Positions 3,636 to 33,041 of a stretch of DNA of 64,000 nt are shown one piece after another; within the stretch, counting starts at the first letter, position 1, and every line of letters begins with the position of its first letter. The notes beneath the pieces were generated by a model. The model did not search any database, had not been told where the DNA came from, and was given only the letters and a program-made list of their open reading frames with translations. The stretch spans positions 8,568 to 72,567 of the forward strand of contig JAGRAX010000001.1 of the NCBI GenBank assembly GCA_020434365.1. The letters run 5' to 3'. The stretch is from Bdellovibrionales bacterium (GTDB taxonomy: Bacteria; Bdellovibrionota_G; JALEGL01; JAGRMV01). The position numbers and the translations under genes were made by a program.

Positions 3636-3806
3636 AGACTGTTCTGTTCTTTTCTTTATCCCAATGGAAAGCCATTGAAAAAATATCTTTGCCCTTGACA
3701 TTACTCACTTCCCTATCCTAGGGTCATTTCAGATACAATATACGAGACCTAAAAGGAGGTATTTCAAATGAAATAATATATAGGGCGATATGCCATAGGA
3801 GCTTTT

Positions 3807-4277
3807 TTGGCGCTAATGGCCACAACTCAGGCTTATGGAGCGGATGCAAGCATCTCATACAAGATGATCAATGGGACAGAGAACACGTCGTGCAGCTATG
3901 AAGCGCAATGGATCACCGAAGACTCCGTAGATAAAAGTAATATTATCTCTAGAAATGATTTTACCGAAAAAGACTTAGGCAACTATGGGAATATTTACGC
4001 CCAAGTTATCAGAACCTACTACACTCAAAAAGGTAACTTCAAAAATCAAAGTCCAGAAAAACAAATACCGGGACAACAGTCATTTTGTGATTCATTCTCG
4101 GTTTGTGCTCTAACTTTTGTTTGTAAAAATACTGCTGAGAGCACACAAGTAGAAGTCACGATTCAAGATCACAAAGGAAAAACTTCAACCTACAACATCG
4201 ATGTTCATAAAAAAGGGGAAAAAGGGAAACCTTTCGAAGGATCTCATATAGATGGTGTAAGTGTATACGTAAAATAA
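3807..4277 (+). CDS. hypothetical small secreted protein
   Basis: 156-aa ORF with a TTG start, 7 nt after an AGGAG. It has a hydrophobic N-terminus and ends at a strong intrinsic terminator. I recognise no domain. Confidence 0.4.
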   Translation: MALMATTQAYGADASISYKMINGTENTSCSYEAQWITEDSVDKSNIISRNDFTEKDLGNYGNIYAQVIRTYYTQKGNFKNQSPEKQIPGQQSFCDSFSVCALTFVCKNTAESTQVEVTIQDHKGKTSTYNIDVHKKGEKGKPFEGSHIDGVSVYVK

Positions 4278-4298
4278 CTCTAAAAAAATACATACTTT

Positions 4299-4336
4299 AC
4301 CTCCTGGGTTTTCCAAACTCAGGAGGTTTTTTTTGT
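4299..4336 (+). terminator. rho-independent terminator
   Basis: Stem ACCTCCTG / CAGGAGGT with a 13-nt loop, followed by a run of 9 T, directly downstream of the 3807..4277 ORF. Confidence 0.8.
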
Positions 4337-4535
4337 TCGCTACATTTTTTTCATAAAGTCACAAAAGCTTATGTTTTTGAAGAATTCTGATCAATAGAGA
4401 AGAATTTTGATCTCGTAAGAATCTTGGAAATCCCCAAACATCTTTGTAGCTGATTTGAATCCAAGAAAAGGGCAGCATGTTTCTCTTTGAAAAATCTGGA
4501 TCGAACTTTATCTCTTTTGTGTCTGTGTTATATCT

Positions 4536-5096
4536 GTGACCATGTTTGCTTGGATTGTACTGGTGCAGTGGCTTGCACGTTTGATTTTTGCCCTTTTGAT
4601 TGCTCTTTCGATCTGGTCTGTTCGGATCATGTTGGAACGCAAAAAATATTTTGCTTCACTGAAGCTAGATCCTTCGAAAGACTTTGTGGAGCAAGCTGAC
4701 CAGAATGCGTTTTTCGCGCAGGCGCGTGCGTCTCTCTCCACAGCTTCAACTCCAGAATCTGTAGAACGAAAATATCAAAACCATCTTCATTTGATTTCAA
4801 AGGATCTTCAAAAAGATCTTGCAAGTTTGGGTACACTGGGAAGCATCAGTCCTTTTATAGGTCTATTGGGAACGGTGTGTGGAATCATTGCAGCTTTTGG
4901 AGATCTTTCGCAGGGAACGCAAAATACAAATCAGATGATGTTTTCTTTGGCCGAAGCGCTGCTTCTTACAGCTGTAGGTTTGGGCGTAGCCATTCCTGCT
5001 GTGGTTGCCTACAATTATTTTTCTCGTCAGGTCAAAGAAGTGCTGTCTCACCTTACTTGTCTTAAAAACGAACACCTAGAATCTATGGAAAGCTAA
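4536..5096 (+). CDS. exbB: MotA/TolQ/ExbB proton-channel protein
   Basis: 186 aa with three TM segments and the MotA/TolQ/ExbB C-terminal signature (..GLLGTVCGIIAAF..MMFSLAEALLLTAVGL..). It is followed by exbD, a tonB-like gene and a TonB-dependent receptor. Start is GTG at 4536 or ATG at 4542. Confidence 0.85.
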   Translation: MTMFAWIVLVQWLARLIFALLIALSIWSVRIMLERKKYFASLKLDPSKDFVEQADQNAFFAQARASLSTASTPESVERKYQNHLHLISKDLQKDLASLGTLGSISPFIGLLGTVCGIIAAFGDLSQGTQNTNQMMFSLAEALLLTAVGLGVAIPAVVAYNYFSRQVKEVLSHLTCLKNEHLESMES

Positions 5097-5500
5097 TGGC
5101 TTTTTCTCCTGAATCAGAAGACGGCATTTTTGACATCAACATCACGCCTTTTGTGGATGTCGTATTGGTTTTGCTCGTCATTTTTATGGTGACTGCGCCC
5201 ATGCTGGCCAAACAAGCTCTTACACTTACACTTCCCGACTCTAGCGTCTCTGACCCCATACAAGCTACAAGTCTGGGCATTTCGATTTCGGCCTCCGGTC
5301 AGTTCTCCATGTACGGTGAGCTCACTTCCGAAAAAGCCTTTGTGGAAAAAGCCGCGCAGGCCATGCAAAAAGACCCAAACACTCAAGCGATGATCGCAGC
5401 GGATGTCAACTGCGCCCATAAACATGTGATCAAAGTGATCAATCTCTTGCGCCAAGCGGGAGTTGAGCGCTACGCCTTTCAAGTCAGAGTAGAGGAGTGA
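5096..5500 (+). CDS. exbD: ExbD/TolR biopolymer transport protein
   Basis: 134 aa with one TM (ITPFVDVVLVLLVIFMVTAPM), typical of ExbD/TolR. Its start overlaps the exbB stop. Confidence 0.85.
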   Translation: MAFSPESEDGIFDINITPFVDVVLVLLVIFMVTAPMLAKQALTLTLPDSSVSDPIQATSLGISISASGQFSMYGELTSEKAFVEKAAQAMQKDPNTQAMIAADVNCAHKHVIKVINLLRQAGVERYAFQVRVEE

Positions 5501-5503
5501 TGC

Positions 5504-6169
5504 TTGCTCAGAGTTTCCAATCAAAAGCATTGGCTTGTTTCTATTTTTATTCACCTGTCATTGCTGATCATTTGCATCTTGTTGGCTTGGGTGTTTTCAA
5601 AAAATCCAGAAAAAATAGAACGTTTTGAGTTTACGATCAAAGAAGTTCCTGATTTTGAAACGGCTCCTATTGCGAAAAACATAGAAAAAAAAATGCAGCC
5701 CATCCAAAGCAGTACAAAAGAGATTGATACGAATCAAAATCAAAATGTTCCAGAAGTCTTCGGCATTCGAAAAGACTCTCTGAAAACAAGTGGCTCTTCA
5801 GGAATCCATGAAAAAGCAGGCAATACCCTAGGCAAAGATCCTGATTCGCTCATACTTGAGGATGATCGAGAACTCCCCACTCCCAAGCCGGCCTACTTGG
5901 TTTCCCAAATGCCCGTGCTCCTGGCTCAGATTGACCCTGTCTATCCAGAAGAAGCCCGAAAGAAAAATATCGAAGGGCAAGTCGTATTGAAAGTTCTCAT
6001 TGATGAAGAAGGAAAAGTTGCAAGGTCCATCATTGTAGAAGATCCTGGCTATGGTTTTGGAAAAGCTGCAAAGGAAGCCATGATGGACTATACCTTTAAA
6101 GCTGCGCGTATCGAAAATCAAAATGTAGCCGTAGAGATTCGCTATGTTGTGCGCTTTGAACTGAAGTAA
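5504..6169 (+). CDS. tonB: TonB-family energy transducer (C-terminal TonB domain)
   Basis: 221 aa with an N-terminal TM. The C-terminus (..YPEEARKKNIEGQVVLKVLIDEEGKVARSIIVEDPGYGFGKAAKEAMMDYTFKAA..) is a TonB C-terminal domain. Confidence 0.75.
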   Translation: MLRVSNQKHWLVSIFIHLSLLIICILLAWVFSKNPEKIERFEFTIKEVPDFETAPIAKNIEKKMQPIQSSTKEIDTNQNQNVPEVFGIRKDSLKTSGSSGIHEKAGNTLGKDPDSLILEDDRELPTPKPAYLVSQMPVLLAQIDPVYPEEARKKNIEGQVVLKVLIDEEGKVARSIIVEDPGYGFGKAAKEAMMDYTFKAARIENQNVAVEIRYVVRFELK

Positions 6170-6174
6170 ATGTT

Positions 6175-8433
6175 ATGAAATATTACAGCCTTCTCATATT
6201 TTTAATTGCCAGCTTACACAACCTGAGCTCTGTGACTTTTGCACAAGAAAAAATATGCTCTGTTGCATTTACGATCAAAGAAAAGGGCAGCAAAAAGAAA
6301 ATTTCCAATGCGAGCATGTTTCTCCTTCCCGAGGGCCTGGAAAAAATCTCCGATGATCAAGGACAACTGAGCTATGATCACCTAAGCTGCACAACACATG
6401 CTTGGGTCATCAATCTCACGGGCTACCTTCGAAGAGATCTTGAAATCAATGTGGAAGACTCCATGTCAAAAACCATTTTTTTGGAGGCCGCCAGCAGTAA
6501 TGAATTTGAAACCATTGTTACAGCAGATAAAAATACCCGAGATGGATCCAAAAGAAGTATTGCGCAGAAAGATTTTATCTCTGCCATTGGGAGTCGCGGG
6601 GATCCCATCATAGCCTTAGAAAATGAAGTGGGCTTTTCGGGTTTTGGCTCGCAAGGAGGTGTCGTTTTGCAAGGCGCGGATCCTGAAGATACGCGTTTTT
6701 ACATTCATGGACATGAGATTCCTCTGATTTTTCACAACCTAGGCTTTTCTTCGATTCTGATTCCCGACGTGGTGGATTCTGTGCAGCTTTACACTGCAGG
6801 GTTTGGTGCAGAGTACGGACGAAGCATCGGAGGGAACGTCAATTTGGAAACTGTCGATCCTCGAAGTGATCGCATTCATGGAATGAGCTATGTAGATTTG
6901 CTCAATGCCGCGGCATTGGTGGAGGGACCCATTGCAGATCATCACTCTTTTTGGATGGGCGGTCGAATCAGTTACATTGGTCCAATTTTTTCATTGGTAA
7001 CCATGAATGATGACAGTGTGTCTTTCAATCAGGTCCCACAATTTTTTGATCTTGAAGCTCAATACAAATGGGACATTTCAAAGAATCTACAGTTTGACCT
7101 TTTGGGCATTGGATCCAAAGACACTGTAAATGTCTTGCTTCGAAATACGGATGATCCTTATTTCAAAGGAGAACTTGGATCCACCACAGCCTTTTATCGT
7201 TTCATCCCTCGGATTCAATATACATGGAATGAGCAAAATCGATTTGAACTATCTATGGGTCTTGGAAAAGATTATGTAAAATTCTCTCTCGGAGATCAGT
7301 TTTTTGATGCCGAAATTTTTCAACCTACCTTAAGATCAGAATGGGAGCAGCATTGGAACGATCAGTGGATCTCGTATGTGGGTTTGGACTTTCAGTATCT
7401 TGACTTTCAAGCGGATGTAAATTTGCCTGCAGGATCTTTTCCCAATGCAGAGGATGAAAATGTGCCTTTGAGTTTGAGAGATGTCATTGTCAAAGAAATT
7501 GAGCAACAAGCACTGCAAGCTGGAGCATATCTGCGAGTTGATTTTTTGACTCAAGATCAGATTTGGAGATTTTCTCCCAATCTTCGTTTCGATTATTTTG
7601 GTCTCACACACAACCTACACATTCAACCAAGGCTCGAGATCGAATCTCGCATTGATAAGCATTGGCGCGCGAGGCTCTCAGGGGGATTGTACCATCAAGC
7701 TCCTCAACCTGCAGAACTGGAAAGCAGTTTTGGAAATCCAGATCTCGAAGATCCCTATGCCCTTCACTATGTTGTCAGTGCTTTGATGGATTTTAGAGAT
7801 AAAAAAGCAGAAGGTTTGTACGGAGATTTCAGCATTTTTTATAAGGACCTTTACAATCTTGTCGTAGACAGTGATGCGCTGATCACAAGAAATGGCAGCC
7901 TCGTCCCCCAAAGATATAGCAATGATGGCAGCGGCTACAGCATCGGAAATCAATGGTCACTCCGATACAATAAAGGCAGATGGTCTCATGCTTTGGCCTA
8001 TACGCTTCTTTGGTCAGAAAAATTCTCTCCCGATGAAGCGCTGTATCCATCATTAGGAGAGCAAAGACACAATGCAAATCTTCGATCGACGGTGAAGCTA
8101 GGAAACTGGTCATTGGGAGCGCGACTACGTGTCATTTCGGGTCAGCGCTATACGCCGGTGCTATCTGCAGCCTATGATGCGGACCAAGATATTTTCTTGC
8201 CTTCTTTTGGGGCGCGTAATTCTCGTCGCGGACCTTTGTTTTATCAATTGGATCTACGCCTGGATCGAAAATGGATCTATGATCAATGGATTCTTTCCTT
8301 TTATCTCGATATTCAAAATGTAACCAATCGAAATAATCCTTTCGAAGTTGAGTATAATTTTGACTACTCGGAGCAAGAGTACTCATCGGGCATTCCGATT
8401 TTGCCAACTTTTGGAATCAAAGGAGAGTTTTAA
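6175..8433 (+). CDS. TonB-dependent outer-membrane receptor with an N-terminal carboxypeptidase-regulatory-like extension
   Basis: 752 aa with a signal peptide, a plug-like region (..DPIIALENEVGFSGFGSQGGVVLQGADPEDTRFYIHG..), a long beta-barrel, and a C-terminal aromatic residue (..FGIKGEF). Confidence 0.8.
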   Translation: MKYYSLLIFLIASLHNLSSVTFAQEKICSVAFTIKEKGSKKKISNASMFLLPEGLEKISDDQGQLSYDHLSCTTHAWVINLTGYLRRDLEINVEDSMSKTIFLEAASSNEFETIVTADKNTRDGSKRSIAQKDFISAIGSRGDPIIALENEVGFSGFGSQGGVVLQGADPEDTRFYIHGHEIPLIFHNLGFSSILIPDVVDSVQLYTAGFGAEYGRSIGGNVNLETVDPRSDRIHGMSYVDLLNAAALVEGPIADHHSFWMGGRISYIGPIFSLVTMNDDSVSFNQVPQFFDLEAQYKWDISKNLQFDLLGIGSKDTVNVLLRNTDDPYFKGELGSTTAFYRFIPRIQYTWNEQNRFELSMGLGKDYVKFSLGDQFFDAEIFQPTLRSEWEQHWNDQWISYVGLDFQYLDFQADVNLPAGSFPNAEDENVPLSLRDVIVKEIEQQALQAGAYLRVDFLTQDQIWRFSPNLRFDYFGLTHNLHIQPRLEIESRIDKHWRARLSGGLYHQAPQPAELESSFGNPDLEDPYALHYVVSALMDFRDKKAEGLYGDFSIFYKDLYNLVVDSDALITRNGSLVPQRYSNDGSGYSIGNQWSLRYNKGRWSHALAYTLLWSEKFSPDEALYPSLGEQRHNANLRSTVKLGNWSLGARLRVISGQRYTPVLSAAYDADQDIFLPSFGARNSRRGPLFYQLDLRLDRKWIYDQWILSFYLDIQNVTNRNNPFEVEYNFDYSEQEYSSGIPILPTFGIKGEF

Positions 8434-9262: not shown

Positions 9263-10102
9263 CTATAAAAAATTTTTGCTTTTGAGAGGCTTTTTTCTAG
9301 TTTCAGCAATGGTATCCAGCATCACTCGATGAAGTTTTTTGTTACTGGCTACAATTTGCCTGTTCCAAAAGTCTTTGATTTTTTTTCCCTCATAGTCTGT
9401 GACTTTTCCTCCCGCTTCTTCCACAAGTAGAATCCCCGCAGCCACATCCCAGGGATGAAGTCCCGGTTCCCAAAAGCCATCAAAGCGTCCACATGCAACT
9501 TGTGCCAAGTCTGTTGCTGCAGATCCCGGCCTACGCACGCATCTGGAACGAAGTTCAAAACGAACAAAAGCGGCCATGTTGTTTTCGTCGCTCTCTTTTC
9601 GATCATAGGGAAAACCCGTAGCCAGTAAGGCTTGAGAGAGTTTTTTTGTGGAAGAGACGGAAATTTTTTCTCCATTGCAGTATGCGCCTTTCCCAGACAC
9701 AGCTGTGTACGTTTCTTTCCACAAAGGATGTGCGATGACACCAAAGAGAATTTTTCCCTTGGATACAAAGGCAATGGAGACCGCAAATACCGGAAAGCCA
9801 TGCGCAAAGTTTGTGGTTCCATCAATGGGATCGATGATCCATACCTCACCTTTGCGTGGATCTACGCTGTGATCACTTTCTTCGGCCAAAATCTGATGCA
9901 AAGGAAAATGCTGCCTAATGATTTTTTTGATGGCCGCCTCGCTGGCCAAATCTGCGGTCGTAACCAAGTCGCTCTCGCCTTTCATTGATGTGACGAAATC
10001 CCTTTGTTTGTAATGTTTTCGAATGATGGCGCAGGCTTTTTGAGCCGCAAGTTTTCCTACGGTTTCTATATTTTCAAGATCAATCTTTGAAGTATGTTTC
10101 AT
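9263..10102 (-). CDS. suhB: inositol monophosphatase family protein (SuhB-like)
   Basis: 279 aa with the IMPase motifs ..WIIDPIDGTTNFAHG.. and ..WDVAAG... Confidence 0.85.
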   Translation of the reverse strand: MKHTSKIDLENIETVGKLAAQKACAIIRKHYKQRDFVTSMKGESDLVTTADLASEAAIKKIIRQHFPLHQILAEESDHSVDPRKGEVWIIDPIDGTTNFAHGFPVFAVSIAFVSKGKILFGVIAHPLWKETYTAVSGKGAYCNGEKISVSSTKKLSQALLATGFPYDRKESDENNMAAFVRFELRSRCVRRPGSAATDLAQVACGRFDGFWEPGLHPWDVAAGILLVEEAGGKVTDYEGKKIKDFWNRQIVASNKKLHRVMLDTIAETRKKPLKSKNFL

Positions 10103-10247
10103 GGTCTATTGTGCTTTCTATGCTTATGAGGCCATTTCTGAGTCATTTTTCAGCAAGAGGAACCTGTTTTTTCTCTTAGTGTAAACTTTTGATTCCATTT
10201 TTTTTGCCGCTTTTTTTTAACTAGTGAATATCATTAAAGCAATGCGC

Positions 10248-10262
10248 TGGCACTGCTTTTGC
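10248..10262 (+). promoter_or_regulatory. sigma-54 (RpoN) -24/-12 promoter
   Basis: TGGCACtgcttTTGCT has an exact GG-N10-GC spacing, a perfect -24 TGGCAC and a TTGCT -12 element. It lies ~320 nt upstream of a sigma-54 activator gene. Confidence 0.55.
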
Positions 10263-10437
10263 TAAGTATATGGGCATGAAACAAAGATCAAAAGAAAATC
10301 GAAGGATGGGAAGAATGATCCCTGATCTTATGGATCGCTAACAAAGGCCTGCAGCACTTGGGTCTTTTCTCTCAAGACTCAAGTTGAGGCCAAGGCCCTC
10401 ACAAGAGGGATTATGGTTACCACAACAACGCAAGTAA

Positions 10438-10472
10438 AAGCCTGAATCGCTACCCTGATTCGGGCTTTTTTC
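10438..10472 (+). terminator. intrinsic terminator or attenuator hairpin
   Basis: 11-bp stem AAGCCTGAATC / GATTCGGGCTT (one G-U wobble) with an 8-nt loop, followed by TTTTTTC. It sits ~175 nt downstream of the sigma-54 promoter and ~100 nt upstream of the activator start. Confidence 0.5.
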
Positions 10473-10501
10473 TTTGACTGCCGAAATAATGCACAAATCG
10501 C

Positions 10502-10531
10502 TTGGTTTTTGCGCACAACATCGCGTAAAAT
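10502..10531 (+). promoter_or_regulatory. candidate sigma-70 promoter for the activator gene
   Basis: -35 TTGGTT, an 18-nt spacer and -10 TAAAAT, ending ~48 nt upstream of the ATG at 10579. Confidence 0.35.
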
Positions 10532-10578
10532 AGTAGTCATCCCACCCATTTTTGAGCAGAAAGTAGGCAAACTACAGC

Positions 10579-12417
10579 ATGGAATATGAAAAAACCCAAC
10601 CGCAGTTCATGGACAAAATTGATGACGAAAAATCCGTCCCTCTTGAAAAATCCTATTTGGTCGCTATGACCGGTCCCCAAGCCGGTACTGTATTCACACT
10701 ATCTGATGGGTCCATGATTGTGGGAAGACAACCGACTGCAGATATTTTTCTTAATGATCATCAGGTCTCTCGAAATCATGCCGAATTTGTCACCAGCATG
10801 GGAGAAACGCAGGTCCATGATCTGGGCTCAACCAATGGAACCTTTCTCAATGGAGAAAAACTAGAAAAAAAAGTGGCGATCTCTGATGGAGATGAAGTTC
10901 AGCTGGGCGCAACTTGTTTTCGATTTTCGATTCACAACCCCATCGATGGAAATCGACTGGGCCTGAGCAATCACGGATATTTTGAAACGCGTTTGCACGA
11001 AGAACTCGATCGAGCCTCTAGGTACAAACGAGATCTGTCTGTGCTCATGATCAGTCCTGCCATCGATCCCAAAGAAATTTTAGACAAAGCCAAACTCCTC
11101 TCGGACCACTACCCTGACGTCGTTGAAAAAATTCGAGGCATCATTCGCACCATGGATTTGCTCGCGCACTATGGAAAATATGAATTGGAACTTCTTCTGC
11201 CAGAAACATCGAAAAAAGATGCGTTAATTCTAGCAGAAAGAATCTTGGCCGATGCTACTTTTGGAAAAGATGAAAACCTTTCCATTGGAATGGCTTCTTT
11301 TCCGGAAGATGGGCGCACTCCTGACATCCTTTTAGAGCGATCTCGATTGGCTTTGAAAAAAGCTCGAACGGAGAAAAAAACCAAACCCGTTGTAGACTTG
11401 GCAGAAGAAAGACATCGTCTCATTCTTTCCAATGAAAAAGAAGTCATCGTTCGAAGCGAAAAAATGAAGGAGCTTTTTGATGTTATCGAGCGCATCGCCA
11501 AATCTACCATCACCGTTTTAATTCAAGGGGAGACAGGCGTTGGAAAAGAGGTTGTCGCTGAAACCATTCACACCAAAAGTGATCGCTCTAAAGATCCATT
11601 GGTTTGTGTCAACTGCGCGGCGCTTACGGAAACGCTTCTAGAAAGCGAACTTTTTGGACATGAAAAAGGATCTTTCACTGGCGCAGATCAAACCAAAATT
11701 GGTCTTTTCGAAAGTGCCAATGGTGGAACCATTTTTTTGGATGAGATTGGAGAAATGCCGCTAAAAACTCAGGCCAAACTTCTTCGCGTACTTCAAGCCA
11801 AGAAAATCATGCGCGTGGGATCAAACAAAGAAATTAACACCGATGTGCGTATCATTGCTGCCACTAATAGAAAGCTCGAAAAGCAAGTAGAGGAGAAGAA
11901 TTTTCGCGAAGACTTATTCTATCGACTCAATGCCGCTACGCTCACCATACCTCCACTACGAGAAAGGAAAAAAGAGGTTCCCTATCTCGTACAAACTTTT
12001 ATCAAAGAATGCTGTGAAGAAAACGGCATCGACAACAAGGACATTTCACCCGATGCCCTAGATATTTTGATGAAATACTCCTGGCCTGGAAACATTCGAG
12101 AACTACGAAATACCGTAGAGCGCGCCGTTGTCATTTCTGAAGGTGAGACCATTTATAAAGAAGCCTTGACCAGCAGACTCACCTCTGATGTAGATCAGAT
12201 CACTTCTTCTTCTTCGATCGACAATCTAGATGCGGCCGTAGACTCTACCATGGTCGGAGACATGAAAGAGGTCATCGCCGCATACGAAAGAGATCTGATC
12301 ATCAACGCCCTGAAGAAAACGCAGTGGAATCAAACGAAGGCCTCAGAAATTTTAAATGTTCCCAGAAGAACACTGGTCTCAAAAATCAAAAAGTACAAAA
12401 TCAAAGAGGATGAATAG
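10579..12417 (+). CDS. sigma-54-dependent transcriptional activator with an N-terminal FHA domain and a degenerate GGDEF-like domain
   Basis: 612-aa ORF. FHA motifs are ..GRQPTADIFLNDHQVSRNHAEF..GSTNGTFLNGEKL... The GGDEF-like fold reads ..RYKRDLSVLMISPAID..IRTMDLLAHYGKYELELLLPETS... The AAA+ sigma-54 interaction motifs are VLIQGETGVGKE, ESELFGHEKGSFTGA and GGTIFLDEIGEM, and a C-terminal Fis-type HTH is NVPRRTLVSKIKKY. Confidence 0.85.
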   Translation: MEYEKTQPQFMDKIDDEKSVPLEKSYLVAMTGPQAGTVFTLSDGSMIVGRQPTADIFLNDHQVSRNHAEFVTSMGETQVHDLGSTNGTFLNGEKLEKKVAISDGDEVQLGATCFRFSIHNPIDGNRLGLSNHGYFETRLHEELDRASRYKRDLSVLMISPAIDPKEILDKAKLLSDHYPDVVEKIRGIIRTMDLLAHYGKYELELLLPETSKKDALILAERILADATFGKDENLSIGMASFPEDGRTPDILLERSRLALKKARTEKKTKPVVDLAEERHRLILSNEKEVIVRSEKMKELFDVIERIAKSTITVLIQGETGVGKEVVAETIHTKSDRSKDPLVCVNCAALTETLLESELFGHEKGSFTGADQTKIGLFESANGGTIFLDEIGEMPLKTQAKLLRVLQAKKIMRVGSNKEINTDVRIIAATNRKLEKQVEEKNFREDLFYRLNAATLTIPPLRERKKEVPYLVQTFIKECCEENGIDNKDISPDALDILMKYSWPGNIRELRNTVERAVVISEGETIYKEALTSRLTSDVDQITSSSSIDNLDAAVDSTMVGDMKEVIAAYERDLIINALKKTQWNQTKASEILNVPRRTLVSKIKKYKIKEDE

Positions 12418-12429
12418 ATCGGAGGATAG

Positions 12430-13038
12430 ATGAAAAAAATTGTTCCGCAAAAAAATCTGCACGAGTTTTTTTATCAGGAAATTCAATCCATCTTGGCTCA
12501 AGAACCTGACTCTATTGATCCTGCCGCAAGTTTTTATTTGGTCAATCTTCTCTCCACCATCTATCAAAAAAATGAAACGCAGCAATCTGTCATCAATTTT
12601 TTTGATGAACCCTTGGCCTTACTCCTAGCCCGAGCACATCACAGCAATGATCCAGAAGAAAGATTTACGCTCTTAAAGCATTTGGGAGATCGAGCATTAT
12701 ATATTTCTGGATTTTTTGGGGACAGTCTCGGACAAAGTGCGGTGGATCTTGACTATTATATGGCCATGGGTGGGACGGCCTATCGATCTCTTTCTTCCAT
12801 TTCCAAAGAAAAACCCCGACAAAAAAATCTGTCAGAGCTTTTTCAAAGTCTTGCCGCACATTTTGCGCAGCTTGTAGACATCATCTCACAAATCAGCGAA
12901 GCTTCGGGGATTACAAAAAATGAAGACCTCCTTAGACTTTATGAGAGATGGATTCACACCAAGAGTTCTAGACTTTTGCAAAAACTCAAAGATCAAGGCA
13001 TTGATCCACTAGAGCAACATAAAAAAATTCTTCACTAA
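12430..13038 (+). CDS. hypothetical protein
   Basis: 202-aa ORF 12 nt downstream of the activator gene, with a GGAGGATAG SD-like sequence just before it. No recognisable domain. Confidence 0.5.
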   Translation: MKKIVPQKNLHEFFYQEIQSILAQEPDSIDPAASFYLVNLLSTIYQKNETQQSVINFFDEPLALLLARAHHSNDPEERFTLLKHLGDRALYISGFFGDSLGQSAVDLDYYMAMGGTAYRSLSSISKEKPRQKNLSELFQSLAAHFAQLVDIISQISEASGITKNEDLLRLYERWIHTKSSRLLQKLKDQGIDPLEQHKKILH

Positions 13039-13046
13039 GCTTTCTA

Positions 13047-13697
13047 ATGTTGGGGCATTTTTTACATAAACGTCTTGAGTTGATTTATGGAGCTAGCAGT
13101 TCGTTGCGACTACACGATTTTATTCTTCCTCTCAAAGAGAATCAGGTATCAACAGTTTTTATGATAAGAAAAAAAACTGATGTATCCATCGCCGTCGGCC
13201 TGAAACCTCAAATTTTGGAACTCGCAAAGAGCAAGCAGATCTCTCATAGTTCTATGGAAAATTTTTGGGAACTGGTGGAAGAAATTTCTCATTTTACATA
13301 TTTGACTTTTTGTCTACGGATACAGAAACCCATAAGTCTTTTGGATATGGAAATGCAGGGAGAAATCGACAAGTATGTACTCACACAAGATTTGTTTGAT
13401 ACCGATCACACGCTCTACACAAAACTGTTTCACCAGTATTCATTGAGATCGCATTTAAATCCCGAAGAAAAGCAGCGCTACCATACCGCCAATCGATTGG
13501 GGGCAAAATTTATACGAAGTCTGACTCAGAAGAAATACGGACGTTTTTTTTGGTCTGAAGGGCTTTTGCGTAGGTTTAGAGATTTTTATCGAAGAGCATC
13601 TTTCGAAAAATGTCGTTGGGTTGAATCAAAGTTAAGCTTTTATTCCCGCAAGGAAATGGAGAAAATCTTTGCGCAATCAATGAGATCATGTAGGTAA
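13047..13697 (+). CDS. hypothetical protein
   Basis: 216-aa ORF tightly linked to the flanking genes on the same strand. No domain recognised. Confidence 0.5.
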   Translation: MLGHFLHKRLELIYGASSSLRLHDFILPLKENQVSTVFMIRKKTDVSIAVGLKPQILELAKSKQISHSSMENFWELVEEISHFTYLTFCLRIQKPISLLDMEMQGEIDKYVLTQDLFDTDHTLYTKLFHQYSLRSHLNPEEKQRYHTANRLGAKFIRSLTQKKYGRFFWSEGLLRRFRDFYRRASFEKCRWVESKLSFYSRKEMEKIFAQSMRSCR

Positions 13698-13707
13698 GGA
13701 GTCAAGC

Positions 13708-14052
13708 ATGAGCAAAGAACAAAGATCCGTAAAAAGAGTCCCTTTACAAATCAAAGTTGATTATAAATCCGAAGGTAATTTTCTTTTTGAAAATGCTACC
13801 AACATCAGTGAACACGGGATTTTTATCGAAACGGATCAACCTTTGGACCCCGGAACCGTTCTTCAACTTCAGTTTACCTTGCCTGAAACACGCAAGACAC
13901 TCAAGGTCATGGGTAAAGTCAAATGGATCAACCCTTTCCGAGAAAATGCCCAGGAGAATTACAATCCAGGCATGGGTGTGCAGTTTGAAAGTTTGGGAGA
14001 AGTAGATCGAGAAATTCTTCTCAATGCAATCAAACGCATTGCCGTATTATAA
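13708..14052 (+). CDS. PilZ-domain protein (single-domain c-di-GMP receptor candidate)
   Basis: 114 aa carrying an RxxxR motif (RSVKR) and an NxSxxG motif (NISEHG). It is a paralog of the ORFs at 15979 and 27610. Confidence 0.75.
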   Translation: MSKEQRSVKRVPLQIKVDYKSEGNFLFENATNISEHGIFIETDQPLDPGTVLQLQFTLPETRKTLKVMGKVKWINPFRENAQENYNPGMGVQFESLGEVDREILLNAIKRIAVL

Positions 14053-14622
14053 AATTTGCTTTTCTTTCACCTGTATAAGCTCACCCTTGGAGTTATACTG
14101 TATGTCCCATTGCACTTTAATCCCCAGACGATTTTCCGTTTGAAATTCCATCGTAAAATTTGAGCCCTTTTTGATGGGTAAAAAAGCAGCATTTTGATGA
14201 ATGAGTTTAGATTTTGGACGATGAACGCCTACAAAAGTTCGTACAAATTTTTCGTGATCTTCCAATTTTTGTATCTGAAATTTTTTTGCTGCAATCCATC
14301 CATTCCAAATCTTAATCTCTCTCACATCAAAAATTATGTATTCTGATCCAGATTTGCCCAGAACCCAAAAGGGGTTGGGGAAAAAATCCGTCGCACTGAC
14401 AAAGAACAGCTTCTCTTGAGGAAAAAGCGCGATAGATCTTTCGGAAATCAAAAAATTGCATTGCGCGCAAATGGGATCTCTTTTTTTTATGCTTTGCTCA
14501 ATTTTTTCTTGATCTACTGCAACGGCAGAAGAAGTCAAAAAAAGCGTCAGTCCCAACACCCATAAACATGTCTTAGGGATATGCAATGCCCACCTCCAGA
14601 TTCTCATAGACCGTAAACGCAT
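14047..14622 (-). CDS. hypothetical secreted protein
   Basis: 191 aa with an N-terminal signal-like segment (..CLWVLGLTLFLTSSAVA). The true start is probably one of the internal Met, which shortens the overlap with the upstream gene. Confidence 0.45.
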   Translation of the reverse strand: MRLRSMRIWRWALHIPKTCLWVLGLTLFLTSSAVAVDQEKIEQSIKKRDPICAQCNFLISERSIALFPQEKLFFVSATDFFPNPFWVLGKSGSEYIIFDVREIKIWNGWIAAKKFQIQKLEDHEKFVRTFVGVHRPKSKLIHQNAAFLPIKKGSNFTMEFQTENRLGIKVQWDIQYNSKGELIQVKEKQIL

Positions 14623-15877
14623 TTTTTATGCTTGAGGGGGAAAGTTGCCCTCTCTTTTTTTCCTTATTTAAGCGCTCGATGGCTCTGCGGAGACTTCCAT
14701 CTTTTTCTTTTTGAACGTAGACCATCGCCAAAGAAACGAGGTACTTTACCTCATCAGGCGAACTCGCGGCAGGATGGATGTATATTTTTTTGGAGGCGAC
14801 ATCAAAAATAACAGGCTGTTCTGGAAAGAAGTGTTCCAAACGAACAAAATGATCCACATTGACTACAATGTGTGACACCGTCTGCTCCAACAAGCTCTGA
14901 GTCTTTCTTCGTCCCAAAAGAGTCATCAAATTGGAGAAGTTTTTGTTTGCCGCGCGGCTCCATGGACCGCCACTCTGGTCTGTTTTTTGTAAAGACTCAA
15001 AAAACAGATGTTCAAAATCAATTTTAGATTCTGAAACATATCCCATGACCTGATTTGGCGGCAATGCTTCAAAAGATTCGAGTTCTTGCAAAAAGGAATA
15101 ACTACCTTTTTTTTCATACTGACGAGATTTTCCAATCCACCCTAGACCTCCATCCGCAGACATATGGACATTGCTGCTGGCAGCCACCATAAGCTGGGCC
15201 AAGTTTTCAACTGCAGCTCTGGCTGGAGCAAGCGAGCCCCCAGAAGGTGTACACGAGTTCATCATTTTTGCCATAGACACCGCACGATCCATGCCTGAGC
15301 TTCCCGATCCCCCTCCGCCTGCCACGGGATTTTGCTCTCCGCTCATCGCCTGATCCATTAGACGATTCCACTCCAACAGGTCTCCCAGTGATTTTTGCTC
15401 TCGGATGATTTGGTCACGTTGATCTGCCGGGTTATTTTTTTGACCGGGAACCAAACCTTCAAAAGAAAATATGAGCTCTGTCAAACGATCGGAGGAAAGC
15501 GAAGACCAAGATCCCGACCACAAATGGCTCGACACCAATTGATCCGGTGTTTTAACCCCTACAGTGCAGCGCCCTTCACTGTCGATCACCACACGATACT
15601 CGTTTGTCCCCACACGAAAACGGTAGGTACGGGTCGAAAAGCCTGCTCTTTCTTTAAGTTCTTTGGCCAGCAGAGGCTTGTTTCCAGTGCTTTGTAAGAG
15701 CTCGTTGAGCATTTTCTCAATTTTGGCTTCTTCAGCGGGAGTTTTGGCATAGGCCCCTTGAAAACAAGACAAAACCAGAAACGTCATGATCATATGGATT
15801 GTACCCGACTGCTTCATTTGCATTTCCATTGTATCATGCCAAGGGCCTAGATCCCATGCCTTTGCAATCATAGGCAT
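14573..15877 (-). CDS. hypothetical secreted protein
   Basis: 434 aa. A probable signal peptide starts at an internal Met (MKQSGTIHMIMTFLVLSCFQGAYA), and the protein has a Gly/Ser-rich central linker. No domain recognised. Confidence 0.5.
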   Translation of the reverse strand: MPMIAKAWDLGPWHDTMEMQMKQSGTIHMIMTFLVLSCFQGAYAKTPAEEAKIEKMLNELLQSTGNKPLLAKELKERAGFSTRTYRFRVGTNEYRVVIDSEGRCTVGVKTPDQLVSSHLWSGSWSSLSSDRLTELIFSFEGLVPGQKNNPADQRDQIIREQKSLGDLLEWNRLMDQAMSGEQNPVAGGGGSGSSGMDRAVSMAKMMNSCTPSGGSLAPARAAVENLAQLMVAASSNVHMSADGGLGWIGKSRQYEKKGSYSFLQELESFEALPPNQVMGYVSESKIDFEHLFFESLQKTDQSGGPWSRAANKNFSNLMTLLGRRKTQSLLEQTVSHIVVNVDHFVRLEHFFPEQPVIFDVASKKIYIHPAASSPDEVKYLVSLAMVYVQKEKDGSLRRAIERLNKEKKRGQLSPSSIKNAFTVYENLEVGIAYP

Positions 15878-15941
15878 TTTTGCTGTAAAGAAAGAGACTT
15901 TGAACTTTGATCATCCTCACAAGTTCAAGTAAACTGGCGGA

Positions 15942-15949
15942 TGTATAAT
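15942..15949 (+). promoter_or_regulatory. extended -10 promoter element (TGTATAAT)
   Basis: A TGnTATAAT consensus lies ~30 nt upstream of the PilZ gene start at 15979. Confidence 0.4.
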
Positions 15950-15978
15950 ATGCCTACACCCCATTAGGACTGCGAGAC

Positions 15979-16323
15979 ATGATAGAAAAACGTAAATACC
16001 CCCGGATTGAAGCCAAAATCAAAGTGAGCTTTCATAGCAAAGAAGAGCTCTCACTTGAATACACCAGAAACATCAGTGCAGGAGGGATTTTTCTCAAAAC
16101 TGATAAATTGCTCGACCCCAACTCAGAAATTGAACTGACCTTGGACTTACCGGAAAAACAGGGCGAAGTTCAAATCAAAGGAAAGGTGATGAGAGTCATG
16201 AGCATGAGTCATCCAGTGGATCCCGAAAAAATGGTCTACGGTGTGGGGGTCCGTTTCATCAACTTAACTCCAGAAATTTCTGAAAAAATTGAAACCTGCT
16301 TACAAAAACTAAGCGGCTCATAG
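15979..16323 (+). CDS. PilZ-domain protein
   Basis: 114 aa with RxxxR (RKYPR) and NxSxxG (NISAGG) motifs intact. Confidence 0.8.
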   Translation: MIEKRKYPRIEAKIKVSFHSKEELSLEYTRNISAGGIFLKTDKLLDPNSEIELTLDLPEKQGEVQIKGKVMRVMSMSHPVDPEKMVYGVGVRFINLTPEISEKIETCLQKLSGS

Positions 16324-16334
16324 AAGCCTATACC

Positions 16335-17603
16335 GTGAATTTTCTTCTTTCACTTTTTTCCCGTTCCCACTATCTGCCGATGTGGAGAAAATTTACGTTT
16401 CCGCTGCTTTCCATGATTGCATTTTTTGTGATGATCAACGCAGCTTGGACCTATTGGGTACTTTCTCAGGAAGTGGTCATTCGGGACTTGTTACAAACTT
16501 TAGCCACTCAACTTGAAATCAGGCCTTACAACGCTGTGGCCCTGTTTAGAGAGGATCTCGACAGTCAGCTGACAGACTACGGTCAAATTGCTTACATCAC
16601 CTATCAATCCCTGGTTAATGAAGATCGACATGGATACATAAACCTTCGCAGTTTTTCTCAAGGGGCTGGAAAGCTCGGCGATGTATTTTTTTTGCAGGGA
16701 GAAAAAAGAAGCTTAGAAGCCATTTTTCAAAATGAGAACTATTTTGCTTCTCCTTACCTAAAAGAACTGTCACAAAAAATTTATGACGGCCGCATTCCTG
16801 TGGGTCTACTCAAAGCGGGCTTTATTTTTCCAGGATATCATTCCTCATTGTCTTGGCTGGGCAGAGGTTTTGTCAGCATTCTTTTGCTTTTGAATATGTT
16901 GTGGGCCACATTGCTTCTTTTCTTTCTTCGAAAATCTCGACCCTTGCTCGAAAGATGCAAAAGATTAGAAGAGGCAGGAGACAAATTGATGGATCAAGAA
17001 ATTGAAGTCAAAATTTCCAAAGATTTAGCTTGGCTTAGTCATCCAAACGCAATGGATGCGCAGGACGACGAAGATACAAAAATCAATCAGCCGATCAAAG
17101 GAAAATGGAATGAATTATTTTCTGAGAACGATCTTCGACATATGAACTCGCAAGGACAATGGTATGTTCACAAACATCATGTCATTGGATTTCCCTGGGG
17201 AAGCTGCCTGACCATGAAAGAAAAATTGCATTCCCAATCTTATGATTTTGAGGTGGAGGTGCAAAAAATTTCTGGCATGGAAGGGTTTTTGCTTTTGTTT
17301 CCCTGCAATGGACATCAACTTTATTGGGTATTGGGTGGATGGAAAAACAAAAGAAGTGAAGTTGCCGGATATCCTCAAACCGTCTCCAAAAGCAAAATCG
17401 AAAGAGGCCGACGTTACTATTGCAAAATCGAGGTCGACGCGCATGAGGCACGTGGTTTTTTAGATGGGGTTCATGTTTGGACACTGCAAAGAGAAGAAAT
17501 TGATCGACCCTCCCCAGATGCCGGTCTTGCAAAAGGTCTGGGCGTAGGCGTTTGGAATTCTCTGACTCGCTTTGACCGCATCCGCATCGTTGAAAATATA
17601 TAA
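16335..17603 (+). CDS. hypothetical membrane protein, probably co-transcribed with the PilZ gene
   Basis: 422 aa with two to three predicted TM segments and a C-terminal ~170-aa soluble domain. It starts 12 nt after the PilZ stop. Confidence 0.5.
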   Translation: MNFLLSLFSRSHYLPMWRKFTFPLLSMIAFFVMINAAWTYWVLSQEVVIRDLLQTLATQLEIRPYNAVALFREDLDSQLTDYGQIAYITYQSLVNEDRHGYINLRSFSQGAGKLGDVFFLQGEKRSLEAIFQNENYFASPYLKELSQKIYDGRIPVGLLKAGFIFPGYHSSLSWLGRGFVSILLLLNMLWATLLLFFLRKSRPLLERCKRLEEAGDKLMDQEIEVKISKDLAWLSHPNAMDAQDDEDTKINQPIKGKWNELFSENDLRHMNSQGQWYVHKHHVIGFPWGSCLTMKEKLHSQSYDFEVEVQKISGMEGFLLLFPCNGHQLYWVLGGWKNKRSEVAGYPQTVSKSKIERGRRYYCKIEVDAHEARGFLDGVHVWTLQREEIDRPSPDAGLAKGLGVGVWNSLTRFDRIRIVENI

Positions 17604-17619
17604 ATTCTGATTCAAATAC

Positions 17620-18393
17620 TTATGAAATCGCAAAAAGCCTCTTGGCGTTTTCTGTACTCTTTTGAATGAATTCATGAATCCCCAGACCATGAAGTGCGGC
17701 CACGTGATTTGCTACATGTGCTACAAAAGCCGGTTCGTTGGTTTTTCCACGATGTGGCACAGGAGCCAAATAAGGACAGTCGGTTTCAATCAAAATTCGA
17801 TCTAAAGGGACAATTTTGCATGCTTCTTGAACACTTTGAGCTTTTGCAAAAGTAACAATTCCCGAAAAAGAAATGTATGCGCCTAAATCAATATATGCCC
17901 GGGCTTCGTCTGGACTTCCAGAAAAGCAATGAATCACACCTCCGACTTTGCGAAAAATATCTGTGGAGGTAAAAATTTCAATGGAGTCTGCTGCTGCTTC
18001 TCGGGTATGAATACATACAGGCTTGGCCACTTCAACGGCCAAATCTAAAAGCTGCGCCAAAACATTTTTTTGAACCTCTTTGTCAGAATGCTCATAGTAG
18101 TAGTCCAAACCAATCTCTCCCAATGCAACAACCTTTTCTTTCTTTGCATAGGATCTAAGAAGGTTCAGATGCTCCGATGTGAAATGTTTGGCATCATGCG
18201 GATGAAAGCCTGCAGCCATAAACAGCTGCGGCCACGCCTGCACAAGAGCATAGGCCTGATCATATTTTTCAAACTCAGGACCCAATGCGATTTGAATGAT
18301 ATGCGTAAGCCCCGCAGTTTTTGCTCTTTCTAAAATTTGATCCAATTGACCTTGATACTGCGGAAAATCTAAATGCGCATGCGTGTCGATCAT
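17620..18393 (-). CDS. tatD: TatD-family metal-dependent hydrolase
   Basis: 257 aa. The start MIDTHAHLD and the internal ..GEIGLDYY.. and ..ETDCPYLAP.. motifs are those of TatD. Confidence 0.9.
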   Translation of the reverse strand: MIDTHAHLDFPQYQGQLDQILERAKTAGLTHIIQIALGPEFEKYDQAYALVQAWPQLFMAAGFHPHDAKHFTSEHLNLLRSYAKKEKVVALGEIGLDYYYEHSDKEVQKNVLAQLLDLAVEVAKPVCIHTREAAADSIEIFTSTDIFRKVGGVIHCFSGSPDEARAYIDLGAYISFSGIVTFAKAQSVQEACKIVPLDRILIETDCPYLAPVPHRGKTNEPAFVAHVANHVAALHGLGIHEFIQKSTENAKRLFAIS

Positions 18394-19199
18394 AATTGAG
18401 GCTTTCGAAGGTGCAGCAAAAAATTCTCAAGACCCAGTTGGATATTTCCATATCGATGGTAGATGCTAGATTCCAATTCTAGACATTGAACATACTGAGT
18501 TTCCCAGTGATAAAAGAGGCTGCTATCCCTATGGGCTTGTAAGATTTGTCGCAGTTTTTTTTGGAGAAAGAAAAAAAACTCCCTAAGCTCTTCTCGATCC
18601 TTAGAAAAACTCTGAGAAAAATCTAAGATCTCTTTGGCCGAAACCTTCTGGTCCAAATCATTAATGTGTTCTAGTGCCTGCCCCCAAAAGGGTGGCTCTT
18701 TTTCTTGTTCTTGAAAAAAATGCACATTTGGGAACTGCACTGAAAAGCAGCGAGAGGTGATGGTCTTAAGCATCGAGCTTTCATTGGGCGCAGAAAGAAA
18801 GAGCGTGAGATAACTTGGCGGCTCTTCTAAAATTTTTAGGAGCGCGTTGGACGCCGCGGGATTGAGCCTTTCGGCTTCGGGTATACTTAGAACTTTGCTC
18901 GCGTTTTCTATGGGGCTACGATGGGCCCACTTCGAAAACTCTCGAACATCATCGACTTTGATCTGCGCTGCCTCACTTTGTAGACAATAAAAATCAGGGT
19001 GCGAAAGGTTTATAATTTTACTTGCTACTTTTTGTTTTCGTTCTGGGTCCTTCTCTTCTAGAGCCAGCAAATAGACCGCAAGATCTAAGACACATCGCGC
19101 TTTGAGTTCTGTATCTAGACCCAAAAAAAGAAATGCGTGGTGCAATCGGCCTTTTTTATGCATTTCTATGATACGTTCTGTAAGCAGTGACATTACCAA
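18390..19199 (-). CDS. holB: DNA polymerase III delta-prime subunit
   Basis: 269 aa with ..LHHAFLFLG.. and ..ASNALLKILEEPP..TLFLSAPNESSMLKTITSRC... It sits in a tmk-holB-tatD arrangement. Confidence 0.8.
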   Translation of the reverse strand: MVMSLLTERIIEMHKKGRLHHAFLFLGLDTELKARCVLDLAVYLLALEEKDPERKQKVASKIINLSHPDFYCLQSEAAQIKVDDVREFSKWAHRSPIENASKVLSIPEAERLNPAASNALLKILEEPPSYLTLFLSAPNESSMLKTITSRCFSVQFPNVHFFQEQEKEPPFWGQALEHINDLDQKVSAKEILDFSQSFSKDREELREFFFFLQKKLRQILQAHRDSSLFYHWETQYVQCLELESSIYHRYGNIQLGLENFLLHLRKPQL

Positions 19200-19822
19200 G
19201 AAGCTTTCCGGTCAATACTTTGAATCAATTGCTGAGATAAAAGAGTTGAATCTTGTGTGCCGTCAAACTCTTTGATCCTGTCAGATTGTTTCTTGCATAA
19301 ATCTTGATACCCTTGTCTCACCTTTTCATGAAATCTTTGATCTTGTTTTTCAAAACGATCCTTGTTTCCACTTTGCCGTTGGTCTACTCGCTCAAGAGAA
19401 AGCTCGACAGGAATATCCAAAAAAATTGTGAGATCTGGAACGAGACCTTGAGTGGCAAATGCATTGATCTGATGCACGGTATCTACATCCAAATCCCGAC
19501 CCGCAGATTGATAGGCCACGGAAGAGTCCATATAGCGATCACACAAAATCAAATCGTATTTTCCCATGGATGGAAGCAGCAATTCTTGAACATGTTGAGC
19601 TCTGGCTGCAGATACAAGCAAAAACTCGCAGCGATCGCTCATTTTTTCTTCTTGTGTAAAAAGCGCGCGCATGCGCTCTCCCAACTTGGTCCCTCCCGGC
19701 TCACGCGTAGACAAAACAGAACGGCCCTGGGCCTGATAGTGCTTTTGCAGAAGTGAAATTTGCGTGGATTTCCCGCTACCTTCTATGCCTTCGAAGCTGA
19801 CAAACAGCGTCTTCGATGACAT
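19193..19822 (-). CDS. tmk: thymidylate kinase
   Basis: 209 aa with a P-loop FVSFEGIEGSGKST and the ..REPGGT.. motif. Confidence 0.9.
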   Translation of the reverse strand: MSSKTLFVSFEGIEGSGKSTQISLLQKHYQAQGRSVLSTREPGGTKLGERMRALFTQEEKMSDRCEFLLVSAARAQHVQELLLPSMGKYDLILCDRYMDSSVAYQSAGRDLDVDTVHQINAFATQGLVPDLTIFLDIPVELSLERVDQRQSGNKDRFEKQDQRFHEKVRQGYQDLCKKQSDRIKEFDGTQDSTLLSQQLIQSIDRKASW

Positions 19823-27609: not shown

Positions 27610-27954
27610 TTACTCTTTTTTTAATTTTTTGTACTTTCTGAAAAGCTTTGAAATGATCTGTTTGCCAGCATCATTGAGCTCCATAAACTGAATGCCCATG
27701 CCTTTTCTTTTGCTGGGGTCTTTTTCAACCCACTTTACAATTCCGGTACCTTGGATGCTCTCTTCTTGGTTTTTGACGCGAAACTCAAAATTAAGCTTGG
27801 TCCCTATGGGTTTTGGACTGTTTGTGACCAGGAACAATCCGCCTTCACTTAAATTTTCTAGGAGAACTTGATCCCGTTGATCTTCTTGCGCGAAAAGAAT
27901 CTTTACGTTGCTCTCTAAAAAAATACGGGCAAATTTACGGCGTTCATCAGACAT
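27610..27954 (-). CDS. PilZ-domain protein
   Basis: 114 aa with RxxxR (RKFAR) and NxSxxG (NLSEGG) motifs. Confidence 0.8.
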   Translation of the reverse strand: MSDERRKFARIFLESNVKILFAQEDQRDQVLLENLSEGGLFLVTNSPKPIGTKLNFEFRVKNQEESIQGTGIVKWVEKDPSKRKGMGIQFMELNDAGKQIISKLFRKYKKLKKE

Positions 27955-32297: not shown

Positions 32298-32320
32298 AGG
32301 CTTTTTCTCTCTATTGAGAG

Positions 32321-32938: not shown

Positions 32939-33041
32939 TCATTATTTTTCTACTAGAGGCTTGATAGGCATAGGCTCTTTAGATTTTTTTGGGTATATTG
33001 CCTGGCCGATGTCATTGATCCTTCAAGAGTGTAAAAAAACC

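Follow-up and report, generated by a model that had tools for sequence, protein, structure and literature searches.

Three stand-alone PilZ genes near the replication origin of an uncultured Bdellovibrionota bacterium: possibly two adjacent c-di-GMP signalling operons and a separate third gene

A 64,000-nt stretch of the Bdellovibrionales bacterium contig JAGRAX010000001.1 (positions 8,568 to 72,567 of the forward strand), which as a whole is called the window here, carries three genes for stand-alone PilZ proteins, PilZ1, PilZ2 and PilZ3. Single-domain PilZ proteins commonly act via protein partners, and most of them have no known partner (bioRxiv 10.1101/2020.02.11.943704). The locus raises the question of whether its three putative cyclic di-GMP (c-di-GMP) receptors form one local module, as a preliminary description of the sequence had proposed, or belong to different systems, and with which partners they would act. 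Our analysis suggested two adjacent c-di-GMP signalling operons in an uncultured Bdellovibrionota clade and a separate third PilZ gene, a reading to which we give an even chance of being right.

All three 114-aa open reading frames (ORFs) of the preliminary description were upheld as PilZ genes. With Pfam PilZ (PF07238), whose gathering score is 22.5 bits, PilZ1 reached 58.7 bits (E 8e-16), PilZ2 64.1 bits (E 2e-17) and PilZ3 46.4 bits (E 5e-12). With TIGR02266 (Myxococcus-type paralogous PilZ, cut-off 68.7 bits), only PilZ1 was above the cut-off (82.1 bits), while PilZ2 was just under it (68.0 bits) and PilZ3 under it (63.6 bits). The two binding motifs that had been claimed were also found in all three proteins, RxxxR as RSVKR, RKYPR and RKFAR, and D/NxSxxG as NISEHG, NISAGG and NLSEGG in PilZ1, PilZ2 and PilZ3, respectively. 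Among six PilZ1 orthologs RxxxR and NISEHG were invariant and the C-terminal IKRIAVL was conserved; among ten PilZ2 orthologs RKYPR and NISxGG were conserved. PilZ1 and PilZ2 are two distinct orthologous groups, with the binding motifs invariant in each. Because both motifs are invariant across orthologs, the PilZ proteins are probable functional c-di-GMP receptors.

The three proteins had been called mutually similar. They do share a family, but their pairwise identity is only 34% (PilZ1/PilZ2), 27% (PilZ1/PilZ3) and 25% (PilZ2/PilZ3). Recent paralogy of the three genes was considered and rejected, with 25–34% identity between the paralogs against 52–64% between distant orthologs. Their sequences mark them as old, distantly related members of the family, and as PilZ proteins they are ordinary. 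The three genes lie within 14.3 kb, and no further PilZ ORF was found in the window. Bdellovibrio bacteriovorus HD100 has 15 PilZ genes per 3.8 Mb (PMC3271064). With this other species as a rough proxy, about 0.25 PilZ genes would be expected per 64 kb against the three seen (Poisson P ~0.002), which is an enrichment.

Related loci came from an exact protein look-up (L004, in the Bdellovibrionota metagenome-assembled genome [MAG] ABC1.69, and L005), from a genome scan with an 11-sequence alignment as query (L007–L009) and from a metagenome scan (L010–L016). A synteny check in these relatives bore out the pairing of PilZ2 with the gene that follows it. Each of the ten lineages in which the sequence reaches upstream of the partner gene has a PilZ2 ortholog directly before it in the same orientation, with a gap of 2–35 nt to the first possible start codon; in the window the GTG start of the partner lies 11 nt past the PilZ2 stop. 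Since the whole neighbourhood is syntenic and adjacency alone is a weak argument, the argument for coupling rests on these same-strand gaps of ≤35 nt, and the two genes are probably translationally coupled. Gene callers started the partner at a later ATG (396 aa). The longer 422-aa form is preferred because L004 keeps the GTG and codons 1–26 despite several synonymous substitutions. PilZ2 is conserved far better (84% identity to L004, 52–64% to distant relatives) than its partner (58% and 25–32%).

The partner had been described as a membrane protein with a C-terminal soluble domain. This held, as the protein has two hydrophobic helices and a soluble C-terminal part; it belongs to no described family. 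Its predicted layout is a first membrane helix (~20–43), an alpha/beta loop domain (~44–176), a second membrane helix (~177–200), a linker that is first K/R-rich and then acidic, and a beta-sandwich (~258–420). An AlphaFold2 model from a 31-sequence alignment was confident (pLDDT 84.6) and consisted of a membrane helix, an alpha/beta domain (~64–164), a membrane helix (177–200), a long helix, a disordered acidic linker and the beta-sandwich (258–420). The sandwich could be superposed on members of the ConA-like lectin/glucanase fold (ConA/CBM66/DUF1080-like), while a fold search gave no identity for the ~130-aa loop domain. No Pfam, NCBIfam or PDB sequence match was found for the partner. A word-indexed protein search gave three matches, and an exhaustive profile search gave ~32 representatives below E 1e-30, mostly full-length and 370–470 aa long. 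The weaker profile matches, which number hundreds, span only the C-terminal domain inside multidomain glycoside hydrolases and TPR proteins, and carry PF06439 (DUF1080, 3-keto-disaccharide hydrolase). The gathering score of PF06439 is 26.8 bits; the partner gives no match and the homolog P0005 reaches 21.9 bits. The beta-sandwich is predicted to be cytoplasmic. It is new that a PilZ gene is always paired with a membrane-protein family that has no annotation, and that the lectin-like domain of this family is apparently cytoplasmic.

PilZ1 is the fourth of four same-strand genes with gaps of 8–12 nt. The preliminary description had its position right and did not mention the operon, which is headed by a sigma-54 activator gene. 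Pfam domains of the activator are FHA, GGDEF, Sigma54_activat (PF00158, E 5e-73) and HTH_8 (E 1e-12), and its AAA+ domain with a GAFTGA-type loop and its C-terminal helix-turn-helix (HTH) identify it as a bacterial sigma-54 enhancer-binding protein. Alignment to the cyclase TpbB showed GKYEL in place of GGDEF (GKFEL also occurs among the orthologs), and the GG[DE]EF of active diguanylate cyclases is absent. The RxxD I-site is in register, RTMD in the activator against RESD in TpbB, five residues upstream of the GGDEF position. Both the degenerate GGDEF and RxxD were invariant in five activator orthologs. GKYEL together with RxxD is the signature of I-site c-di-GMP receptors, a concept set out in PMC3271064, and makes the activator a putative receptor of this kind. 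No description of the architecture FHA, dead GGDEF, AAA+ and HTH was found in the literature searched, and it is new that a sigma-54 activator with FHA and a dead GGDEF is encoded together with a PilZ gene.

The order activator–p202–p216–PilZ1 is kept in the window, L004, L008, L009 and L013. Orthologs of p202 were found at the same position in L004, L008, L009 and L013 and in part in L011, and those of p216 in L004, L008, L009, L011 and L013; L011 has p216 and PilZ1, and its contig ends upstream. Pfam and NCBIfam scans and PDB sequence and profile searches gave no family for p202; for p216 no Pfam or NCBIfam family and no credible PDB sequence or profile match was found. Compared with L004, PilZ1 and the activator are each 88% identical, the top values in the block, and with PilZ2 the three range over 84–88%, against 30–58% for their neighbours and 55–68% for TatD, HolB and Tmk. 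No other proteins of the block are as well conserved as these three.

PilZ3 was found in another setting. Its orthologs, 56–83% identical, always lie between a divergent operon (PBP1A, SpoIID, a ~200-aa protein and MatE) and a MoaA-like radical-SAM gene, and these flanks are the same in L017 and L019–L022. In L019–L022 the far side of this neighbourhood consists of TatA/TatC and methylmalonyl-CoA mutase genes, not of the block from Omp85 to PilZ2. Because the far side differs in these loci, only the window organism and ABC1.69 have PilZ3 close to PilZ1 and PilZ2. On this synteny PilZ3 would be an independent receptor of the PBP1A/radical-SAM neighbourhood, unrelated to the PilZ1 and PilZ2 operons. 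The conserved PBP1A operon hints at a link of PilZ3 to cell-wall synthesis. The radical-SAM protein itself scored 190 bits against a MoaA cut-off of 284 and has a long basic K/S/T-rich tail.

Between PilZ1 and PilZ2 lie two genes for probable exported proteins of 191 and, as listed, 434 aa. They had been described as a divergent or convergent pair. In fact they stand in tandem on the minus strand with a 50-nt overlap as listed, and the 191-aa gene is convergent to PilZ1, their stop codons overlapping by 6 nt. The true start of the 434-aa protein is probably near M17–M21. Both proteins are called exported because hydrophobic signal-like segments at the N-terminus are conserved in their orthologs; of the earlier term "secreted", this much stands, and these segments are its sole basis. 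For the 191-aa protein, a hydrophobic N-terminus and CxxC were found in L004 (30% identity), L007, L010 and L011. For the 434-aa protein, aligned orthologs in L004 (46%), L007, L009, L011 and L013 are 17–46% identical and all have signal-like N-termini, and L005 gave a tblastn match of 23%. A search of 5.8 billion proteins with the 434-aa protein returned itself alone, and Pfam, NCBIfam and PDB sequence and profile searches gave nothing credible for either protein.

Both exported-protein genes are present in the window, L004, L007 and L011. L009 and L013 have the 434-aa gene and lack the 191-aa gene, L010 has only the 191-aa gene, and L005, whose contig is cut, has the 434-aa gene. L008 lacks both, and its PilZ1 and PilZ2 genes are directly adjacent. 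Comparison of these loci marks the two as fast-evolving, dispensable accessory genes, the least conserved of the block. Because they are variably present, their flanking by two PilZ genes, earlier taken as a design, is not a conserved one. A plausible history is that a PilZ1–PilZ2 tandem came first and the exported-protein genes were inserted later.

The 434-aa gene and PilZ2 diverge from a short promoter region. The extended -10 announced for PilZ2 was found there as a perfect TATAAT at 15943-15948 with TG immediately 5' of it, and relatives have TGnTAAAAT, the canonical form, or TGnTAGAAT at the matching place. A consensus promoter scan did not list this site, as its -35 fails. The inverted repeat TTGAACTT-N13-AAGTTCAA next to it is unique in the window (0 expected by shuffling), and its core is conserved in L004. 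In four more distant loci a 10-nt palindrome, TAACATGTTA, replaces the window-type repeat at the same position (L005 976-985, L007 9533-9542, L009 9375-9384 and L011 3501-3510). It occurs once per locus, always ~70 nt before the PilZ2 ortholog, where it overlaps the TGnTAAAAT-type extended -10. This arrangement backs the promoter call of the preliminary description and suggests control by a repressor. The features of the region are collected in Table 1.

Table 1. Coordinates of the PilZ genes and associated features in the window.
Feature	Position	Strand	Description
Sigma-54 enhancer-binding protein	10579..12417	+	612 aa: FHA, degenerate GGDEF, AAA+ (GSFTGA loop), HTH_8; heads the PilZ1 operon
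p202	12430..13038	+	202-aa cytoplasmic protein; operon gene 2, 12-nt gap; no family
p216	13047..13697	+	216-aa cytoplasmic protein; operon gene 3; motifs EEISHFxYL and SLLDxExQGEIDK conserved
PilZ1	13708..14052	+	114 aa, stand-alone PilZ; end of the sigma-54 activator operon, 10-nt gap
191-aa protein	14047..14622	-	Probable exported protein; CxxC conserved; variable accessory gene
434-aa protein (as listed)	14573..15877	-	Probable exported protein; SMAKMMNxC conserved; divergent from PilZ2
Inverted repeat TTGAACTT-N13-AAGTTCAA	15900..15928		Divergent promoter region; candidate operator
TG + TATAAT	15941..15948	+	Probable -10 of the PilZ2 promoter; no recognisable -35
PilZ2	15979..16323	+	114 aa, stand-alone PilZ; first of two operon genes, the other encoding the 422-aa membrane protein
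422-aa membrane protein	16335..17603	+	Two helices, predicted outside loop domain, C-terminal ConA-like beta-sandwich
tmk, holB, tatD	17620-19822	-	Convergent with the PilZ2 operon, 16-nt gap
Radical-SAM gene	26387-27457	-	Downstream of PilZ3; always paired with PilZ3 orthologs
PilZ3	27610..27954	-	114 aa, stand-alone PilZ; separate conserved neighbourhood
PBP1A, SpoIID-domain protein, 205-aa protein, MatE operon	28060-34370	+	Divergent from PilZ3; conserved in all PilZ3 loci examined
dnaA, dnaN, yidC, gidA, ATP synthase genes	53098-55826, 57322-59079, 40497-44343	-, +, -	Origin-side markers

The reading as two operons builds on observed genes with their domains and motifs, on the fold, on the spacing within the operons and on synteny. 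The PilZ1 operon would be a c-di-GMP-responsive transcription module, in which c-di-GMP would be sensed by the I-site of the dead GGDEF domain, by PilZ1 or by both, so as to modulate the activator, with p202 and p216 acting as possible co-factors. In the PilZ2 operon, c-di-GMP-loaded PilZ2 would dock on the cytoplasmic part of the 422-aa protein and switch its state; this docking is proposed because other single-domain PilZ adaptors act in this way on membrane partners. The exported-protein genes share the promoter region of PilZ2 and might be co-regulated with it. In this scheme c-di-GMP binding, the membrane topology, the interactions of PilZ2 with its partner and of PilZ1 with the activator, and any output are what we infer. 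An envelope or secretion role of the PilZ block would be speculation.

Several points weigh against the two-operon reading. Binding and interaction are deduced from sequence, and the source organisms are known solely from metagenomes. The window contains dnaA, dnaN, gidA, yidC and the atp operon, which places it near the replication origin (oriC), and in such a syntenic neighbourhood conserved adjacency is a weak sign of functional coupling. The cytoplasmic side of the beta-sandwich follows from the positive-inside rule only. ConA-like, DUF1080-like and CBM domains are usually extracytoplasmic, and a cytoplasmic site is unusual for them. L007 and L010 have the PilZ2–partner pair but no PilZ1 in the available sequence before it (10 kb in L007 and ~3.1 kb in L010), so the two operons are separable. 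A scan of the window and of nine further loci gave no convincing sigma-54 promoter before PilZ2 or the 434-aa gene that would mark them as targets of the activator; L007 has TGGCAC...TTTGC upstream, with a spacing wrong for a sigma-54 promoter.

An alternative that we consider unlikely is that inheritance alone explains the arrangement, with a gene order frozen near the origin and PilZ1 and PilZ2 acting on distant targets, for example the type IV pilus ATPase. The whole region is indeed syntenic and close to dnaA, and TatD, HolB, Tmk, RlpA-like, RDD, SLT and Omp85 genes around the PilZ block are syntenic in the clade as well. The closest sequence matches with solved structures for PilZ1 and PilZ2 were the Xanthomonas type IV fimbriae assembly PilZ (E 2e-5 and 2e-3, respectively), and tmk-holB-tatD adjoins the PilZ2 operon. 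In gammaproteobacteria pilZ stands beside holB and tmk, as tmk-holB-pilZ-tatD in Pseudomonas and Xanthomonas, and the same genes next to PilZ2 may reflect either an old linkage or chance; a literature search on pilZ with holB and tmk found nothing relevant. However, same-strand gaps of 2–35 nt in ten lineages point to co-transcription of PilZ2 with its partner. Pilus-type PilZ proteins are without RxxxR (bioRxiv 10.1101/2020.02.11.943704), which the window proteins keep. Moreover, the window has no pilus genes, and tmk-holB-tatD is on the opposite strand.

Another alternative, which we regard as improbable, is an inside-out signal of the LapD/LapG type, in which PilZ2 with c-di-GMP would act on the 422-aa protein, whose periplasmic loop would bind or release the 434-aa and/or 191-aa proteins. 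Two helices flanking a ~130-aa domain resemble LapD (PMC3032553), and the exported-protein genes diverge from the same short promoter region in 8/10 lineages. But the cytoplasmic part of the partner has no HAMP-GGDEF-EAL, the family scans identified neither a protease nor an adhesin among the exported proteins, the fold search with the loop domain gave no identity, and the PilZ2–partner pair persists without exported proteins in L008. We see this as the most interesting possibility for the partner, on weak evidence. An extended form of the idea is quite doubtful as well. In it PilZ2 and the 422-aa protein would be a transmembrane c-di-GMP device not described before, in which the PilZ2 adaptor loads onto the cytoplasmic lectin-like sandwich and drives an inside-out change of the loop that controls the exported proteins. 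In parallel, the activator would sense c-di-GMP by its I-site together with PilZ1, and both systems would be specific to this uncultured clade, which is possibly predatory.

The single module of the preliminary description, with three PilZ proteins controlling the envelope or secretion, the exported proteins as cargo or effectors and the membrane protein as machinery, is very unlikely. It would account for three PilZ genes in such a short distance, for exported-protein genes that lie between two of them and have a promoter region in common with PilZ2, and for envelope genes nearby (PBP1A, SpoIID, SLT, Omp85 and RlpA-like). Against this, the PilZ3 neighbourhood is conserved independently and is far from the PilZ1/PilZ2 block in L019–L022, L008 has no exported-protein genes and L009, L010 and L013 have just one of the two, and PilZ1 is in an operon with a transcription factor and not with the exported proteins. 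Pfam, NCBIfam and PADLOC scans also gave no component that resembles a secretion system. That the PilZ domains are degenerate adaptors no longer binding c-di-GMP is extremely unlikely. Single-domain PilZ proteins do include large clusters that do not bind it (bioRxiv 10.1101/2020.02.11.943704), but the window proteins, unlike these clusters, have both motifs intact and invariant in all orthologs.

Besides these genes, a perfect sigma-54 promoter consensus, TGGCAC-N5-TTGC, was found at 10248-10262 (+), just upstream of the activator gene. It is followed by ~190 nt of conserved sequence and then by an intrinsic-terminator hairpin (10436-10469), in which L004 shows compensatory changes. The element (10248-10475) gave no Rfam match, its internal short ORF is not conserved in frame, and together with the sigma-54 promoter it was found only in the window and L004, not in L008, L009 or L013. 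It is a candidate sigma-54-dependent small RNA or leader on the plus strand. An Rfam scan of 10000-18000 gave no family. In L008, ~3.6 kb (3282-6948) is inserted between the activator gene and the remaining operon, with genes for an HTH-like protein (146 aa), a membrane protein (393 aa) and a third protein of 336 aa.

L007 (JAZDDX010000026.1) belongs to a MAG labelled Pseudomonadota with high G+C. Its gene order is homologs of the 434-aa and 191-aa genes, PilZ2, partner, tatD-holB-tmk, RlpA-like, RDD, SLT and Omp85, and because this is the order of Bdellovibrionota, the label is probably wrong. PADLOC found no defence system, its matches being generic AAA/HTH and radical-SAM proteins only.

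Bdellovibrio-like bacteria are unusually rich in PilZ proteins (15 in HD100; PMC3271064), and this region offers two concrete candidate receptor–partner pairs, PilZ2 with the 422-aa family and PilZ1 with the sigma-54 activator. The 422-aa family comprises ~30 known sequence clusters, none of which is annotated. If these pairs are real, c-di-GMP signalling would gain a new class of output and sigma-54 activators a new combination of regulatory domains; if not, the locus is simply a group of hypothetical genes conserved among uncultured bacteria.

Compared with known systems, the putative I-site activator is like PelD, PopA and CdgA of Bdellovibrio, degenerate-GGDEF I-site receptors that likewise have an inactive GGDEF and keep RxxD. 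FleQ and VpsR are c-di-GMP-responsive sigma-54 activators; the FleQ type binds c-di-GMP on its AAA+ domain, unlike the I-site proposed here. Myxococcus has PilZ-DnaK proteins (PMC10313047), whereas the 522-aa Hsp70-family protein of the window (791-2359, minus strand) has no PilZ domain. The latter matches positions 1–512 of the 599 in the Hsp70 profile, and the C-terminal end is missing.

For the 422-aa protein, DUF1080/PF06439 and CBM66 are the nearest domains, with 12–17% identity and every Pfam threshold above the score of the partner. The members known so far, which bind carbohydrates or are enzymes, are secreted or lie in the periplasm, whereas the partner domain is predicted to be cytoplasmic. 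LapD is also a two-helix inner-membrane protein with a ~130-aa periplasmic domain and a cytoplasmic c-di-GMP input, and exported-protein genes lie next door at our locus. However, LapD/LapG has HAMP-GGDEF-EAL and the LapG protease, the 422-aa locus has neither, and the input here would come via a separate PilZ protein.

The type IV pilus PilZ proteins (PA2960/XC1028/XAC1133) are of similar length to PilZ1 and PilZ2, give their closest structure matches, and are encoded beside tmk, holB and tatD. They have lost c-di-GMP binding together with RxxxR, whereas both motifs are kept here, and PilZ2 lies on the opposite strand to tmk-holB-tatD, in an operon with the 422-aa gene and with no pilus genes nearby. 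Examples of single-domain PilZ adaptors with a membrane or motor protein as partner are HapZ–SagS, YcgR, FlgZ and MotL with the stators, and MapZ–CheR1. Like PilZ2 they are of ~115 aa with canonical RxxxR and D/NxSxxG, and act on a specific protein or have its gene beside theirs; c-di-GMP-dependent docking would be expected here too. Further sources on such adaptors are PMC8203827 and bioRxiv 10.1101/2020.02.11.943704. The partners of HapZ, YcgR/FlgZ/MotL and MapZ are a kinase, a stator and a methyltransferase, whereas that of PilZ2 would be a two-helix lectin-like protein, a pairing suggested by the operon structure.

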